From NCBI GenBank assembly GCA_963666275.2, contig CAXXOA010000001.1, forward strand, positions 256,001-320,000: DNA of 64,000 nucleotides, read 5' to 3'. The stretch is from Oceanispirochaeta sp. (GTDB lineage: Bacteria > Spirochaetota > Spirochaetia > DSM-2461). Of the stretch, positions 22,724 through 28,206 are shown piece after piece. The position numbers and the translations under genes were made by a program. The notes beneath the pieces are model-generated. The model saw only the letters and a list, made by a program, of their open reading frames with translations. It had not been told where the DNA came from and did no database searches. The first letter of the stretch is position 1, and each line of letters starts with the position of its first letter.

Positions 22724-25702
22724 GTGTCTGAAAAATTTGAATATCCCGATACATTCCGTCTGATTTCAACAGACGAACTTGAAGAATACAGAGGCAGGGG
22801 CTACCTGTTTGAACATATTGCCACAGGCTGTCAGATCTACCATGTGCATAATGATGACCAGGAGAACCTTTTCTCCTTCAATTTCAGGACTCCTCCGGAG
22901 GACAGCAGCGGGGTGGCTCATATCCTGGAGCATTCAGTGCTCTGCGGATCAAGGAATTTTCCCGTTAAGGACCCCTTTGTTTCCATGATGAAGGGGAGTG
23001 TGAATACATTTCTCAATGCCATGACCTATCCGGATAAAACCCTCTACCCCTCAGCCAGTGTCCTGGAAAAAGACTATTTCAACCTGATGCATGTGTACGG
23101 GGACGCTGTCTTTTTCCCTCTTCTGAAAAAAGAGGTTTTCCGGCAGGAGGGGCATCGTCTGGAACGGGATGACGAGGGCAATCTCCAGAGGGTGGGGATC
23201 GTCTATAACGAGATGAAGGGCAACTACTCCTCACAGGAGAGCATTGCCGCCGAATGGTCCATCCGGTCTCTTTTTCCCGATACCCCTTACGGCGTCGATT
23301 CGGGCGGGGATCCCGAGTTCATCCCCTCACTGACCTATGAAAAATTTCTGGAGTTTCATAAAACCTACTATCATCCCTCGAACTGCCGGATTTTCCTTTA
23401 TGGAGATATCTCCTCTCAGAAAAATCTCTCTTTCCTGGAGGAACACTTCCTTTCTGAATTTACCCGCAGAGAGGTGGATTCGGCGGTTCCGCTTCAGCCG
23501 GATTGGGACGCTCCTGTGGAGATGGAAGCTTCCTGGCCCAGCGGGGAGGACGACAAGTCCGGCGGGATGACCACACTTCTTCTGAACTGGAAAACAATCG
23601 GTCCCGAAGATCCTGTCCGCAGCCTGAGTCTGTCCATTCTGACGGAGATGCTGATGGGCAACAGCGGGGCTCCCCTTCAGAAGGCTCTTCTGGAATCGGA
23701 TCTTGGTGATGATGTCTCCCATGTGAGCGGTATCGATTTTGATCTGAATCAGGCTGCCTTTACCATAGGCATGAGAGGTTCGGATCCGGATAAAAAAGAG
23801 GCCTTCAGAGAACTGGTTTACCGAGTTCTCCGGGAGCTGGCGGACAAGGGATTTCCCGAAGATCTGAAAGAGAGCTGCCTGCGGCTGGTGGAATTCCGCG
23901 CCCGGGAGGTAAAGGGGGGCGGACCCTTCGGTATGCGCCTTCTGAAGAAGGCCCTGAAAGGATGGAACTACGATCATCCCCCTGTGCTGACTATGGAATT
24001 TGCGCCGCATATGGAAACAGTCCGGAAGCTGGCCCGGCAGAAAGGATACTTCGAAGGCCTGCTGAAAGAGCTGATCCTTGACAATCCCCACTGTTCTCTG
24101 GTGGTTGTCAAACCCGATTCCACACTGACCAGAAAGCAGAAAGAGGCCCTGAAACAAGAGCTTGAAGCTCTGGACAGGGCCATGGGAGCGGAAGACAGGG
24201 AGCTTCTTGACAGGGAGAATCAGGCTCTGAGAGTTTTTCAGGAATCGGGAGACACCCCCGAAGCCAGGGAGACCATTCCCTCTCTGGATATCAGTGATAT
24301 CCCCCGGGAGGTGGAAACCATTCCCTGTTCTGTGGAAGAAACCCCTGAAATGACCATTTACAGACAGGAGGTTTTTACCAACGGTATCCTCTATGCGGAC
24401 ATGGCTTTCGACCTGTCCGGACTGGATGAGGCCTATATGCCCTACCTTCCGCTCTTCTGCAAAGCCCTGACCCAGACGGGACTGCCCGGTATCTCCTATG
24501 ATGTGATAACCCGGGAGCTTGCCATGAAAACAGGCGGGTTCGGCGCTTCGGTAGAAGCATCTCACAAGGTGGATTCCTCCCGGGATGATCAGCCGGAAAG
24601 GTATTTTTATGTCCGCCTCAAAATGCTTGAAAATCAGCGTAACGAAGCTCTGGAACTGGCGGGTAAACTGCTTCTCCAGGCGGATTTTGACAATACGGAA
24701 CGTCTCGAGCAGCTCCTGAAAGAGAGCCTGAATGATATGAAAGCCTCGCTGGTTCCCGGCGGGCACTCCTATGTGTCCCTGAGAGCCAACAGCCGCCGTT
24801 CCCGGGCTTCTGCTCTGGATGATCTGTGGTTCGGCATTACCCAGGTGGAATTCCTCTCCCAGTTGAATCAGGCGGATAAAAAGGCTCTGCTTCCGGCTGT
24901 CTCCCGGGTTCTGAAGGGAATCCGTTCCCATGTCATCACTGCCGGAGGAGTCTCTCTGAGTCTGACAATGGATGAAAAATCCATGCCTCTCCACAGCAGC
25001 AGGATTGCGGGGTTCTGGAAAGATCTTCTGCCCGCCTCCGCGGGGGATGTTCCCTTCCCCTCCGGGGATCTGCCGGTTTCTCCGCTGCCTCCCGCTCCCG
25101 AGGAAGGGAGCTTCCAGGAGGGCCTCTCCATCCCCGCTTCCATCGGTTTTGTCGCCGCATCCCTGAAGGGCACCGCCCTGGGAACTCCTGAACATGCCGG
25201 TCAGATCCTGCTGAGTCATCTGATGAAAATCGGTCCACTCTGGGAGAAAATCCGGATGAAGGGAGGCGCCTATGGAGCCTTTTCCTCCCTTTCGGGGCTG
25301 GAAAAGACCTTTACCTTTGCCACCTACAGGGATCCTCATATTGAGGAAACCCTGAAAGCCTTCAGAGAGAGCCTGGAGGAATTCCTTGCTTTTGATGACA
25401 GGGTCGAGCTGGACAAGTCGCTGATTACCGTGATCGGTCGGGAGATGCGGCCCCTTTCTCCCTCGGAAAAAGGGATGATCTCACTGAAACGGCATCTTTA
25501 CGGGATCAGTGATGAGCTGCGGCAGAGGAAACGGGAGCAGCTGATGGCAATGACTCCCCGGGAAATTCAGAAGGCCTCCCGATCACTTCTGGATCTCTGG
25601 GAGAACGCTGTGATCGAGGTTATGGCTCATCCGGATCGTCTTGATTCGGCTGCAGAGCAGTGGCCCGGTTTAAAAGACCGCCGGATCGAGCTGCCCCAGT
25701 AA
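22724..25702 (+). CDS. Insulinase-family M16C metallopeptidase (PreP-like)
   Basis: HILEH inverted zincin, NTFLNAMTYPDKT, VYNEMKG, IRMKGGAYG, TYRDP; start GTG 22724 (or 22691). Confidence 0.93.
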   Translation: MSEKFEYPDTFRLISTDELEEYRGRGYLFEHIATGCQIYHVHNDDQENLFSFNFRTPPEDSSGVAHILEHSVLCGSRNFPVKDPFVSMMKGSVNTFLNAMTYPDKTLYPSASVLEKDYFNLMHVYGDAVFFPLLKKEVFRQEGHRLERDDEGNLQRVGIVYNEMKGNYSSQESIAAEWSIRSLFPDTPYGVDSGGDPEFIPSLTYEKFLEFHKTYYHPSNCRIFLYGDISSQKNLSFLEEHFLSEFTRREVDSAVPLQPDWDAPVEMEASWPSGEDDKSGGMTTLLLNWKTIGPEDPVRSLSLSILTEMLMGNSGAPLQKALLESDLGDDVSHVSGIDFDLNQAAFTIGMRGSDPDKKEAFRELVYRVLRELADKGFPEDLKESCLRLVEFRAREVKGGGPFGMRLLKKALKGWNYDHPPVLTMEFAPHMETVRKLARQKGYFEGLLKELILDNPHCSLVVVKPDSTLTRKQKEALKQELEALDRAMGAEDRELLDRENQALRVFQESGDTPEARETIPSLDISDIPREVETIPCSVEETPEMTIYRQEVFTNGILYADMAFDLSGLDEAYMPYLPLFCKALTQTGLPGISYDVITRELAMKTGGFGASVEASHKVDSSRDDQPERYFYVRLKMLENQRNEALELAGKLLLQADFDNTERLEQLLKESLNDMKASLVPGGHSYVSLRANSRRSRASALDDLWFGITQVEFLSQLNQADKKALLPAVSRVLKGIRSHVITAGGVSLSLTMDEKSMPLHSSRIAGFWKDLLPASAGDVPFPSGDLPVSPLPPAPEEGSFQEGLSIPASIGFVAASLKGTALGTPEHAGQILLSHLMKIGPLWEKIRMKGGAYGAFSSLSGLEKTFTFATYRDPHIEETLKAFRESLEEFLAFDDRVELDKSLITVIGREMRPLSPSEKGMISLKRHLYGISDELRQRKREQLMAMTPREIQKASRSLLDLWENAVIEVMAHPDRLDSAAEQWPGLKDRRIELPQ

Positions 25703-26909
25703 TTCTGCTTTTGAGTATAAGAGGAAGCAGAACGGCCTGAAATCCCAGGACAGGAAGGAATATGAGGAATGTTCTCAGATTATCCTGTCTGAGGGAGGGC
25801 AGGAAATTCACCGCGGAAGTGAAAAGCAGGACCCCCAGCTGGATCTGCCAGAACCGGATCATCACTTTTTTGCGTTTCTGCTGATCCGCCCGGGGGTAGA
25901 GGAATATAAAAAGCAGATAAAGAGGATGGATCAGGAAGGCATTGATATTCTCATGGGCTACCAGATGGTTGGAGAAGAAGGCCAGGAAGTAGAGAAGACA
26001 TCCCGCCAGTCCCAGCGCCAGAAACAGCGTTTTCAGTACAAACCGGCTGAATCGTCTTAGATGGCGGGTGGAGGTAAGGGATCCGGTTTGCAGGAGCAGC
26101 AGGACAAATCCTGCAATCAGGCCGAGCAGAAGGGCCTGATTGCTGTTGGTCGGGGCTCTTTCCGGTATGGACTGGCGGCCTTCCGCCTTTATTCGGTATT
26201 CCGTATTCAGTACAAGGGGCTGTGTCCCTTCCGGGGTACTTATCTGCAGATAGGAGACCTGTTTCATCAGTTCATCCGGCAGGAACATGGTATCCCACTC
26301 GGTAATATCCCTGTCTATGCTCCGGCCCTGGAGAAAAGAAAGGAGCCAGTCTCCCCAGAAACTGTGGCTGCTGTAGCGGCGGAAGCTCTCTCTGAAACTG
26401 GTCACCCCTGAGATCTCTGTGGCTTCCCGGAGCTGCCCGTCTACGGCTTCATCTATGAGATCCCGGATTCTGGTGGAACAGTTGTCCAGATAGTGATGAT
26501 AGAGGTAGGTGTTGTTCCCCGGCTGAACCTTCCACTGCAGATACTCTGCCATAGCGGCAATCTTTTCATCACTCAGATTCAGGGTCTGAATCGTCACATC
26601 CCTGTTCTCCCGGACGATATAGTTCATATAGGCTCTGGCTGATACCCCTACGGAAGAGTATACAAGCCGTCCCATGGCAAAGTTGCGGTAGAAATGGTCC
26701 GCTTCAAATGAGAAATTTCCGAAATCATAGAAAACCGCCCGGCCGGTTTGAGTATTTTCCAGGATCAGCCCCGTATGGCCGAACCAGACGTACAGGGGAT
26801 CTCCCGGACCGACCGTAACAAGGGAACAGTTCCAGATCTTTTCCTCTGAAGAACCAAAGGCTGGAAAGAGAAGTAAAATCATAAAGAGAGCCAACAGCAG
26901 TTTTTTCAC
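25620..26909 (-). CDS. DUF4105 / Lnb-like lipoprotein N-acyltransferase candidate
   Basis: GPGDPLYVWFGH, YDFGNF, YLDNCSTRIRD, FLP motifs plus C-terminal TM helices. Confidence 0.75.
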   Translation of the reverse strand: MKKLLLALFMILLLFPAFGSSEEKIWNCSLVTVGPGDPLYVWFGHTGLILENTQTGRAVFYDFGNFSFEADHFYRNFAMGRLVYSSVGVSARAYMNYIVRENRDVTIQTLNLSDEKIAAMAEYLQWKVQPGNNTYLYHHYLDNCSTRIRDLIDEAVDGQLREATEISGVTSFRESFRRYSSHSFWGDWLLSFLQGRSIDRDITEWDTMFLPDELMKQVSYLQISTPEGTQPLVLNTEYRIKAEGRQSIPERAPTNSNQALLLGLIAGFVLLLLQTGSLTSTRHLRRFSRFVLKTLFLALGLAGCLLYFLAFFSNHLVAHENINAFLIHPLYLLFIFLYPRADQQKRKKVMIRFWQIQLGVLLFTSAVNFLPSLRQDNLRTFLIFLPVLGFQAVLLPLILKSRITGAARSGGLLNRATALQPNQDDPDEP

Positions 26910-27063
26910 CGGAAAAAGTACCTCCAGGTATCAAATCGGAAAAGTTTCAGGATAATATTAATTGATGAGGGTTAATTTTTCTACCCTATTGATTTTTTCT
27001 ATTTATCTCTGGTAAAGATTTATGTTAGAATAAGCCTCAATAAAAAGGCATAAGGAGCAATTT

Positions 27064-27249
27064 ATGGCTGAAAAAGAAACCCTGGTAGTATCTTCCAAGG
27101 TTAAGAATTACATCAAAACCACTGGAGATCTGAAATGTTCTGCTAAAGTTATTGATGTTCTTTCTGACAAGATCCGCGAAATGTGTGACGCTGCTGTCGA
27201 AAATGCAAAGAATGATAAAAGGAAAACCGTACAGGAAAAGGATTTCTAA
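27064..27249 (+). CDS. Bacterial histone-fold protein (Bd0055/HBb-like)
   Basis: LVVSSKVKNYIK...S...IDVLS...AVENAKNDKRKTVQEKDF histone-fold pattern; AAGGAG RBS, own terminator. Confidence 0.9.
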   Translation: MAEKETLVVSSKVKNYIKTTGDLKCSAKVIDVLSDKIREMCDAAVENAKNDKRKTVQEKDF

Positions 27250-27278
27250 TTTGCATTAGAAGCTGTAAAAAATGTATC

Positions 27279-27312
27279 AGGCCGCCCTTGTTGTAAAGGG
27301 TGGCTTTTTTTT
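27279..27312 (+). terminator. Intrinsic terminator after histone gene
   Basis: AGGCCGCCCTT-loop-AAGGGTGGCTT followed by T-run. Confidence 0.85.
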
Positions 27313-27762
27313 GCCCTGATTATTACAGCTTCGGGAGATATGAGCGCGATTGCCTCTCCATATATTAAAATTGTAATTCATCTTTTTCTAGTTCAATTCT
27401 ACATCATCCTAATAAATCATTTATTTCTTACCTTTGAAGTACTGTTGTATTTCTGCAAGTTAATTTTTTTATGAATAGGAATCAAACATACAATGAGAAA
27501 TACAGAATCCCCTCTTCCAGAATGGAACATTGGGATTATTCCTCTCCGGCAGCCTACTTTATAACCATATGCACTAATAACCGTTCCCATTTTATGGGGC
27601 AGGTCTGCAAGAGGAAAATGCAATTGTCTGAGATCGGAAAAATGGCCTATAACAATTGGAAGAATATACCTCAACAGTTTCCCGTTATTGTACTCGATGA
27701 ATTTATCATAATGCCGGATCATATCCATGGTATAATCCGCATCCCCCACCCAAAAAACAGGA

Positions 27763-27870
27763 ATGGTAAAACCTCTGGTGATGGTAAAACACAGGGTGAT
27801 GGTAATAAACAGGGTGATGGTAATAAACAGGGTGATGGTAATAAACAGGGTGATGGTAATAAACAGGGTG
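27763..27870 (+). repeat. 18-bp tandem repeat in RAYT CDS (2 degenerate + 4 identical copies)
   Basis: ATGGTAATAAACAGGGTG x4 at 27799-27870, variants at 27763 and 27781; encodes (GNKQGD)n. Confidence 0.95.
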
Positions 27871-27873
27871 ATG

Positions 27874-27901
27874 GTAAAGACGCGATTAATCGCGTCTCTA
27901 C
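27874..27901. repeat. REP palindrome inside RAYT CDS
   Basis: GTAAAGACGCGATTAATCGCGTCTCTAC. Confidence 0.85.
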
Positions 27902-28206
27902 GGTGGATCAAACCAATACGGATGCAACCTGTCTCTCTGTAACGGCAATTATAAAACCTGTGGATGGACATATCGCTAATACCGGAACTGGTGGTGTAAC
28001 CGGTTCGTATAATCCAATGATAAATCAGAATATTTCCAGGATTATCAGATGGTACAAGGGCAGGACTACATTTGAATGCCGAAAAATCAATAAAAACTTC
28101 GGCTGGCAGGAACGCTATTATGACCACATAGTCAGATCAGATATATCCCTATACAGGATCAGGCAGTATATCAGAAACAACCCGGCAAAATGGCTATCAT
28201 AATCAA

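Follow-up and report, generated by a model that had tools for sequence, protein, structure and literature searches.

To our knowledge, bacterial histones have been characterized experimentally in two lineages only, namely HBb of Bdellovibrio and HLp of Leptospira. Alpha3-truncated histones are defined by an alpha3 helix of 3-4 residues and an alpha2 helix that is 4-5 residues shorter than in nucleosomal histones, and those of bacteria are either of the 'bacterial dimer' kind (HBb) or of a tetrameric face-to-face kind (Schwab et al. 2024). According to the same survey, bacterial dimers carry an RKTxxxD motif and lysines in alpha1 and are without R48 and N52, the residues that join dimers to each other; the class Spirochaetia is listed among their holders. 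In HBb, R51 and D58 form a clamp that is helped by D49, and DNA is contacted by N22, R57, S9, T53, T8, S24, K10, K12, K52, and K16 (Hu et al. 2024). How HBb binds DNA is disputed, with end-on binding in a nucleohistone filament on one side (Hocher et al. 2023) and DNA bending on the other (Hu et al. 2024). In HLp, the tetramer interface is made of R49, S52, and N53 against F63, T61, and R55, the RD clamp is R55-D62, and the tetramer wraps about 60 bp of DNA (Hu et al. 2025). Leptospira lacks HU, and SMC is a neighbor of its histone gene (Hu et al. 2025); bacterial histones often coexist with HU/IHF-type proteins (Hu et al. 2024). For a histone of the Spirochaetia, we found no experimental study in the literature searched and catalogue-level statements only (Schwab et al. 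2024; Hu et al. 2024), whose supplements may already list the genus.

The protein analyzed here is encoded by a 61-codon gene of Oceanispirochaeta sp., located in a stretch of 64,000 nt that is called the window below. Sequence, profile, fold prediction, and dimer prediction agree with each other, and together they support its identification as a genuine HBb-type bacterial histone. This type of histone is already known in spirochaetes, and the gene adds a further member.

Gene layout and expression signals

The features at the locus, in window coordinates, are:

25620..26909, minus strand: gene for an Lnb-like membrane protein of 429 aa, the divergent neighbor immediately upstream
26998..27006, plus strand: A/T-rich block TCTATTTAT upstream of the -10 candidate, kept in most same-genus loci
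27023..27031, plus strand: extended -10 promoter candidate TGTTAGAAT, with TGnTAGAAT invariant in same-genus loci
27034..27049, plus strand: small hairpin in what is presumably the 5' untranslated region, with a 5-pair stem (GCCTC...GAGGC-like)
27052..27057, plus strand: Shine-Dalgarno sequence AAGGAG, 6 nt before the ATG, read from the sequence
27064..27249, plus strand: histone coding sequence, ATG start, TAA stop, 61 aa, alpha3-truncated HBb-type histone-fold protein
27279..27312, plus strand: intrinsic terminator, an 11-pair stem (6 GC pairs) at 27279-27306 followed by a T run
27471..28202, plus strand: IS200-like ORF of 243 aa (Y1_Tnp, 30.2 bits)

A preliminary description of the locus had proposed an ORF of 61 aa with its own ribosome-binding site, a -10 element, and a terminator. 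All four were recovered: the ORF runs from ATG to TAA as described, AAGGAG precedes the ATG, the stem and T run follow the gene, and TGTTAGAAT is present, its status as a candidate -10 element resting on conservation. The gene had also been called stand-alone, which holds at the sequence level. Given a divergent gene on the upstream side and a distance of 222 nt to the next ORF on the plus strand, a monocistronic transcription unit is plausible.

Conservation of these signals was assessed in an alignment that covered 220 nt before and 120 nt after the histone orthologue in 12 genomes, i.e. the own genome, ten of the same genus, and one of a different genus within the family. TGnTAGAAT and AAGGAG occurred at constant spacing to the ATG in all 11 same-genus loci, despite diverged flanks. 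The twelfth locus kept AGGAG, which is thereby invariant in 12/12 loci, and matched the -10 element partially. A GC-rich hairpin and a T run follow the stop codon in each of the 12 loci, with differing stem sequences. A two-hexamer sigma-70 scan of positions 26500-27800 found no promoter. The count of TGNTAGAAT in the window was 1, compared with 2.15 expected by chance; since this is not above chance, it is conservation on which the promoter call depends. The block TCTATTTAT does not match the -35 consensus, and may serve as a weak -35 or as an UP-like element. The hairpin at 27034-27049 was picked up on the minus strand by a terminator scan, and its clear conservation in the 12-locus alignment is limited to the outer GC pairs. 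Ten sequencing runs were listed, with no RNA run among them; the stretch or part of it was detected in eight of the ten, and at least half of its words were found in two (share 0.99).

As a reference for codon adaptation, 28 ribosomal-protein and EF-Tu genes of the main ribosomal operon were taken. The histone gene reached an index of 0.770 (reference median 0.700, maximum 0.767). This value is higher than that of 99.9% of 3746 ORFs of at least 250 aa and of 99.65% of random 61-codon windows drawn from these ORFs, the index being a proxy, the background including spurious long ORFs, and a gene of 61 codons giving a noisy value. Codon usage thus suggests very high expression of the histone, which agrees with reports that HBb and the Leptospira histone are very abundant proteins (Hocher et al. 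2023; Schwab et al. 2024). Four genes in the genome scored above the cut-off of PF00216 (HU/IHF), and the codon adaptation of these paralogues ranges from 0.57 to 0.64. Two of them lie in tandem on the minus strand outside the window (G000:C1:132206-132755; L014 and L015).

Sequence relationship, predicted fold, and dimer type

Against Pfam PF00808 (CBFD_NFYB_HMF), the protein scored 23.2 bits (E = 8.7e-5) at a gathering cut-off of 21.4, and in a genome scan with the same model the gene was again above the cut-off (24 bits). For the NCBIfam model archaea_histone (NF043032), the score of 26.8 bits stayed below the cut-off of 50, so that the protein does not qualify as an archaeal nucleosomal histone. 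The residue pattern from which the preliminary description had read a histone fold is present in full in the 61-aa protein, as are the two cysteines that it had pointed out (C25 and C41). The net charge, counted from the sequence, is approximately +2.

A phmmer search of the PDB returned HBb/Bd0055 as the best solved relative (8fvx/8cmp, E = 1.6e-11, residues 5-60), followed by HLp of Leptospira perolatii (9qt0, E = 4.4e-9) and the archaeal HTkC (9f2c, E = 0.002). A family profile built from 43 spirochaete homologues was also searched against the PDB. It matched HBb with 2e-20 (76 bits), HLp with 1.4e-14 (57.5 bits, about 19 bits lower), and HTkC with 6.1e-11, and gave weak values of about 0.09-0.3 for HMfA/HMfB and NF-YB-type chains. 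HBb is hence the best solved match for the single sequence as well as for the family profile. Across the 43 homologues, no variation was seen at K12, K14, S26, K54, and T55, and conservation of K18, R53, and D60 was 90% or more. We also considered a subunit of an NF-YB/HAP3 heterodimer and rejected it, given a single histone-fold match in the 5.27-Mb genome and E-values of 0.15-0.18 for NF-YB chains.

The AF2 model, computed from a 43-row alignment, consists of two helices (residues 2-20 and 27-50) and a turn at the C-terminus (58-60, HHH), i.e. the helix-loop-helix-loop-helix topology of histones. Confidence of the monomer was moderate (mean pLDDT 74.7, pTM 0.50). With 24 residues in alpha2, alpha3 confined to residues 58-60, and five residues after the RKTV loop, the predicted structure has the proportions of the alpha3-truncated histones. 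In a Foldseek search of the PDB, HBb entries ranked first (TM 0.62, probability 1.00, E = 8.3e-3), followed by HLp, the Asgard histone HHoB, and HTkC (TM 0.61 for HTkC), and all of the 44 matches listed through rank 50 were histone-fold chains. E-values no better than 8.3e-3 are expected, because the chain has only 61 residues.

Multimer prediction had been suggested as a check, and a two-copy run predicted a head-to-tail handshake dimer. The homodimer score was 0.62 (0.61, 0.65, and 0.62 in three runs), as opposed to 0.00 for the best of three controls; of the benchmark proteins, 20 of 30 solved as pairs and one of 23 solved as single chains reached the same mark. Contacts agreed to 100% among the three runs, and the partner pLDDT was at least 83. 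Residues 23-26 of loop L1 are predicted to contact residues 54-56 of the partner's loop L2, and the alpha2 helices to contact each other through residues 33, 37, and 40. As HBb dimers have already been solved, the passing score may reflect likeness to them and is not to be read as independent proof. The preliminary description had named the lack of a histone-fold match or of a predicted handshake dimer as grounds for giving up its claim; the match and the predicted dimer were both obtained. We regard a histone-fold dimer as very probable.

Residue numbers of HBb equal those of the Oceanispirochaeta histone minus 2, as judged from the phmmer alignments. The ten DNA-contact positions of HBb therefore correspond to S10, S11, K12, K14, K18, K24, S26, K54, T55, and K59. 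Seven of them are identical (S11, K12, K14, K18, S26, K54, and T55), two are conservative changes (T8 to S10 and R57 to K59), and one is different (N22 to K24). The clamp is kept as R53-D60, as is the extra aspartate (D51). The motif of the bacterial dimers is found as R53-K54-T55...D60 together with K12, K14, and K18, where the offset of one to K11, K13, and K17 in the logo of Schwab et al. (2024) comes from alignment.

These residues bear on the question of whether the protein could assemble like HLp, that is, as a face-to-face tetramer wrapping about 60 bp of DNA. In both searches HLp came second among the solved relatives, it has the truncated alpha3 and the RD clamp in common with the protein, and Leptospira belongs to the same phylum. 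The positions of HLp R49, S52, and N53, however, are occupied by N47, N50, and D51, so that among the face-to-face residues R49, N53, and R55 only the equivalent of R55 (R53) is kept. In an alignment of 111 histones, all from loci fetched in this analysis, R47 and N51 occurred together in 5/5 rows of one family (f34), none of the other 106 rows had R47 or N51, and the f34 rows were split from all others with an SH-aLRT of 100. One f34 sequence is nearly identical to HLp, for which reason f34 is presumably the Leptospira family. With the tetramer residues of HLp absent, a family profile that favors HBb by the 19 bits given above, and a separate f34, the protein is by sequence of the HBb 'bacterial dimer' type and not of the Leptospira tetramer type, and a tetrameric assembly appears very improbable. 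Of the likeness to both Bdellovibrio and Leptospira histones that had been proposed at first, the HBb part stands and extends to the dimer type; the Leptospira histone is more distant, and its tetramer type is not matched.

Set against the described systems one by one, the protein is closest to HBb/Bd0055 (PDB 8fvx, 8cmp, 9ezz, and 9f0e), with 53-54% identity over 54-57 aligned columns. Both have a short alpha2, a single-turn alpha3, the RKT loop, the R-D clamp with an extra Asp, lysines in alpha1, and a Cys in mid-alpha2; both are without the tetramer residues, and both coexist with HU/IHF-type proteins. They differ in phylum and in loop L1, where K24 takes the place of the main contact N22 and C25 that of T23. 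Structures of HBb have been solved, whereas the Oceanispirochaeta histone is known from sequence and models. HLp (PDB 9qt0-9qt2; 41% identity) and the L. interrogans histone, of about 61-65 aa and from the same phylum, share the alpha3-truncated fold, the RD clamp, and a single histone gene per genome. In contrast to the present protein, HLp forms its tetramer via R49, S52, and N53. Leptospira further differs by being without HU, compared with four PF00216 genes in this genome, and by its SMC neighbor, compared with no conserved chromosome-related neighbor at this locus. HTkC of Thermococcus kodakarensis (PDB 9f2c) likewise has an alpha3-truncated histone fold, but is archaeal, forms a torus-shaped face-to-face tetramer, and is 25% identical. 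The archaeal HMfA and HMfB are alike in histone fold, handshake dimer, and the loop motif R-T...D, but have a full-length alpha3, a longer alpha2, and form tetramers and hypernucleosomes; their profile match is weak (E = 0.09-0.2). HU and IHF are the usual DNA benders of bacteria. Their fold (PF00216) is unrelated, and what they would share with the histone, as a proposal, is the character of an abundant small dimer that bends DNA non-specifically.

The two cysteines differ in their distribution. C41 is Cys in 12/12 rows of the own family, 62/65 rows of named spirochaetes, 11/11 rows of Myxococcota/Deltaproteobacteria, and 2/2 rows of Bdellovibrionales. In the predicted dimer it contacts the hydrophobic core of the partner (V13', Y16', I17', and L33'). 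Since the equivalent position in the alignment is Cys in HBb too and the predicted contacts are with core residues, C41 looks structural. The redox modulation by the two cysteines that the preliminary description had considered found no support. C25, in loop L1, is Cys in all 12 own-family rows and in 61 of 65 named spirochaete rows; the position is Thr in the Myxococcota/Deltaproteobacteria (11/11), Bdellovibrionales (2/2), and f34 (5/5) rows. By these counts, C25 is the only one of the two that is largely spirochaete-specific. Its place in this presumably DNA-binding loop is flanked by the counterparts of N22 and S24, two DNA contacts of HBb, and in the predicted dimer it touches the partner's T55; no contact between C25 and C41 was among the lowest-error pairs listed for that dimer. 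The spirochaetes in question are mostly anaerobic or microaerophilic. Were C25 to render DNA binding sensitive to oxidation or thiols, which we think decidedly doubtful, these spirochaetes would have a redox-responsive chromatin protein.

Distribution, phylogeny, and gene neighborhood

Queries with the protein and with PF00808 showed that the histone gene is single-copy in the 5.27-Mb genome. All 24 sampled genomes of the own family have a histone, with one match each, and in other families of the class a match was found in 2/16, with one genome per family. Of 401 genomes sampled evenly over the phylum, 93 had a match, including 72/75 of f34 (41-49% identity), 8/8 of f28, and 4/6 of f42; with this query, no match was obtained in f18 (0/50), f39 (0/38), f33 (0/17), or f37 (0/11).

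Among GTDB species genomes, 446 histone loci were confirmed, and the best 80 are mostly spirochaete-named records. The closest named record among these 80 is 'Spirochaetaceae bacterium 4572_59', with a histone of 98% identity and neighboring genes in common, in line with the host having been taken for a spirochaete other than Leptospira. Records of Myxococcota, Deltaproteobacteria, and Bdellovibrionales within the 446 loci showed 57-67% identity. A word-index search gave 125 homologues of 59-100% identity, nearly all of 61-62 aa, which include proteins of Thiospirochaeta perfilievii and Entomospira nematocerorum. Some relatives are named 'histone H3/H4', 'histone-like protein', or 'NFYB/HAP3 family transcription factor subunit'. 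With histone names attached to relatives, and with the class Spirochaetia listed by Schwab et al. (2024), the earlier remark that such a gene is easily missed as hypothetical does not hold.

An exhaustive search retrieved 460 cluster representatives at E ≤ 0.001, including numerous doublets and fusions. Within proteins P0121-P0270, many of the closest representatives are doublets with two matched stretches (126-274 aa) or have N-terminal extensions of 40-180 aa. Such forms are in agreement with the fused alpha3 histones in the literature, of the ZZ type and others, and none is encoded in this genome.

For phylogenetic analysis, a tree of 103 rows and 62 columns was built, omitting seven of the 11 near-identical same-genus/same-family loci (L002-L012) as well as L088, which is cut at a contig end. 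The Myxococcota/Deltaproteobacteria and the Bdellovibrionales sequences (loci L077-L097 and L103-L114) formed one clade each, both with an SH-aLRT of 98. Both clades nest among spirochaete families without Cys25 (SH-aLRT 83), which hints at histone transfer between phyla. In an AU test, a single spirochaete HBb-type clade received a borderline p of 0.049 on the 62 columns; because of this p-value and the shortness of the alignment, we claim neither transfer between phyla nor monophyly.

The Lnb-like protein encoded upstream has a periplasmic Lnb_N domain and a transmembrane domain of five helices. Its gene adjoins the histone gene in 11/11 genus/family loci and in 18 of the 80 named loci, with no functional link to the histone apparent. 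Further upstream is a gene for an M16C/PreP-type peptidase, and downstream of the histone gene the IS200-like ORF is followed by the gene for a molybdenum subunit of xanthine dehydrogenase. As no IS200-like relative is found beside the histone gene in the 11 genus/family loci or in the 80 named loci, this ORF looks like a recent, genome-specific insertion between the histone and xanthine-dehydrogenase genes. It contains an in-frame 18-nt tandem repeat at 27777-27878 (5.7 copies, GDGNKQ-like units).

Proposed mode of action and significance

We consider the best explanation of the whole, at a probability of roughly three in four, to be that the gene encodes a minimal alpha3-truncated HBb-type histone acting as an abundant, nucleoid-associated, DNA-bending dimer. 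By analogy to HBb, a role as a non-specific DNA-binding nucleoid protein is likely, and for bending as the mode of binding, which also derives from analogy, the case is evenly balanced. We infer DNA binding, bending, abundance, and the nucleoid role, for which the codon index and the kept DNA-contact residues of HBb serve as proxies. The histone gene would be transcribed as a unit of its own, from the conserved extended -10 promoter to the intrinsic terminator. Two chains of 61 residues would then form the handshake dimer, with the alpha2 helices crossing near residue 37 and loop L1 (residues 23-26) paired with the partner's loop L2 (54-56), the latter being held by the R53-D60 clamp with the help of D51. 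As in HBb, the dimer would bind DNA without sequence specificity, through the minor groove and the backbone. The alpha1 face (S10, S11, K12, K14, and K18) would provide one set of contacts, and the paired L1-L2 loops, with K24, S26, K54, T55, and K59, would provide further ones. Binding would bend and compact the DNA, and the histone would work as an abundant nucleoid-associated protein beside the four HU/IHF-family proteins.

Dimers might instead bind end-on and coat straight DNA as a nucleohistone filament without bending it. The filament was first proposed for HBb/Bd0055, the closest relative of this protein, from a crystal structure with end-on binding and a sheath of dimers (Hocher et al. 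2023); different co-crystals, solution data, and simulations favor bending (Hu et al. 2024), and we hold the filament to be unlikely. Quite improbable, in our view, is a specialized role of a histone-fold protein, as a specific transcription regulator or a protein-protein adaptor and not as a global chromatin protein. The 'NFYB/HAP3' naming of relatives points in this direction, the general role in the nucleoid could be taken by the four HU/IHF genes, and a caveat raised by Schwab et al. (2024) is that prokaryotic proteins with a histone fold need not all be genome organizers. Yet one histone-fold gene in the genome leaves no NF-YC-like partner, top-of-genome codon usage and presence throughout the family fit an abundant housekeeping protein, and the residues for non-specific DNA contact in HBb are kept. 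The chance of a spurious or non-functional small ORF is negligible. The gene is indeed short, with 61 codons, and its -10 motif count is not above chance, but conservation already refutes this reading: the 125 homologues are of conserved length, 446 loci are confirmed among GTDB species genomes, K12, K14, S26, K54, and T55 are invariant, and the ribosome-binding site, promoter candidate, and terminator are conserved as well. An abundant HBb-type dimer that binds and possibly bends DNA remains the preferred reading.

The current picture of bacterial histones is unchanged by this gene, because the category and its presence in the Spirochaetia have already been published. What the gene illustrates is that the Spirochaetota carry both histone types, that of HBb and that of HLp, in different lineages. 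In the family of Oceanispirochaeta, the HBb type is universal among the 24 sampled genomes and has codon usage indicative of high expression despite the presence of HU/IHF genes. Close homologues exist in cultured relatives (Thiospirochaeta perfilievii and Entomospira), in which the way that minimal histones organize bacterial DNA and share the nucleoid with HU could be tested independently for a third time.
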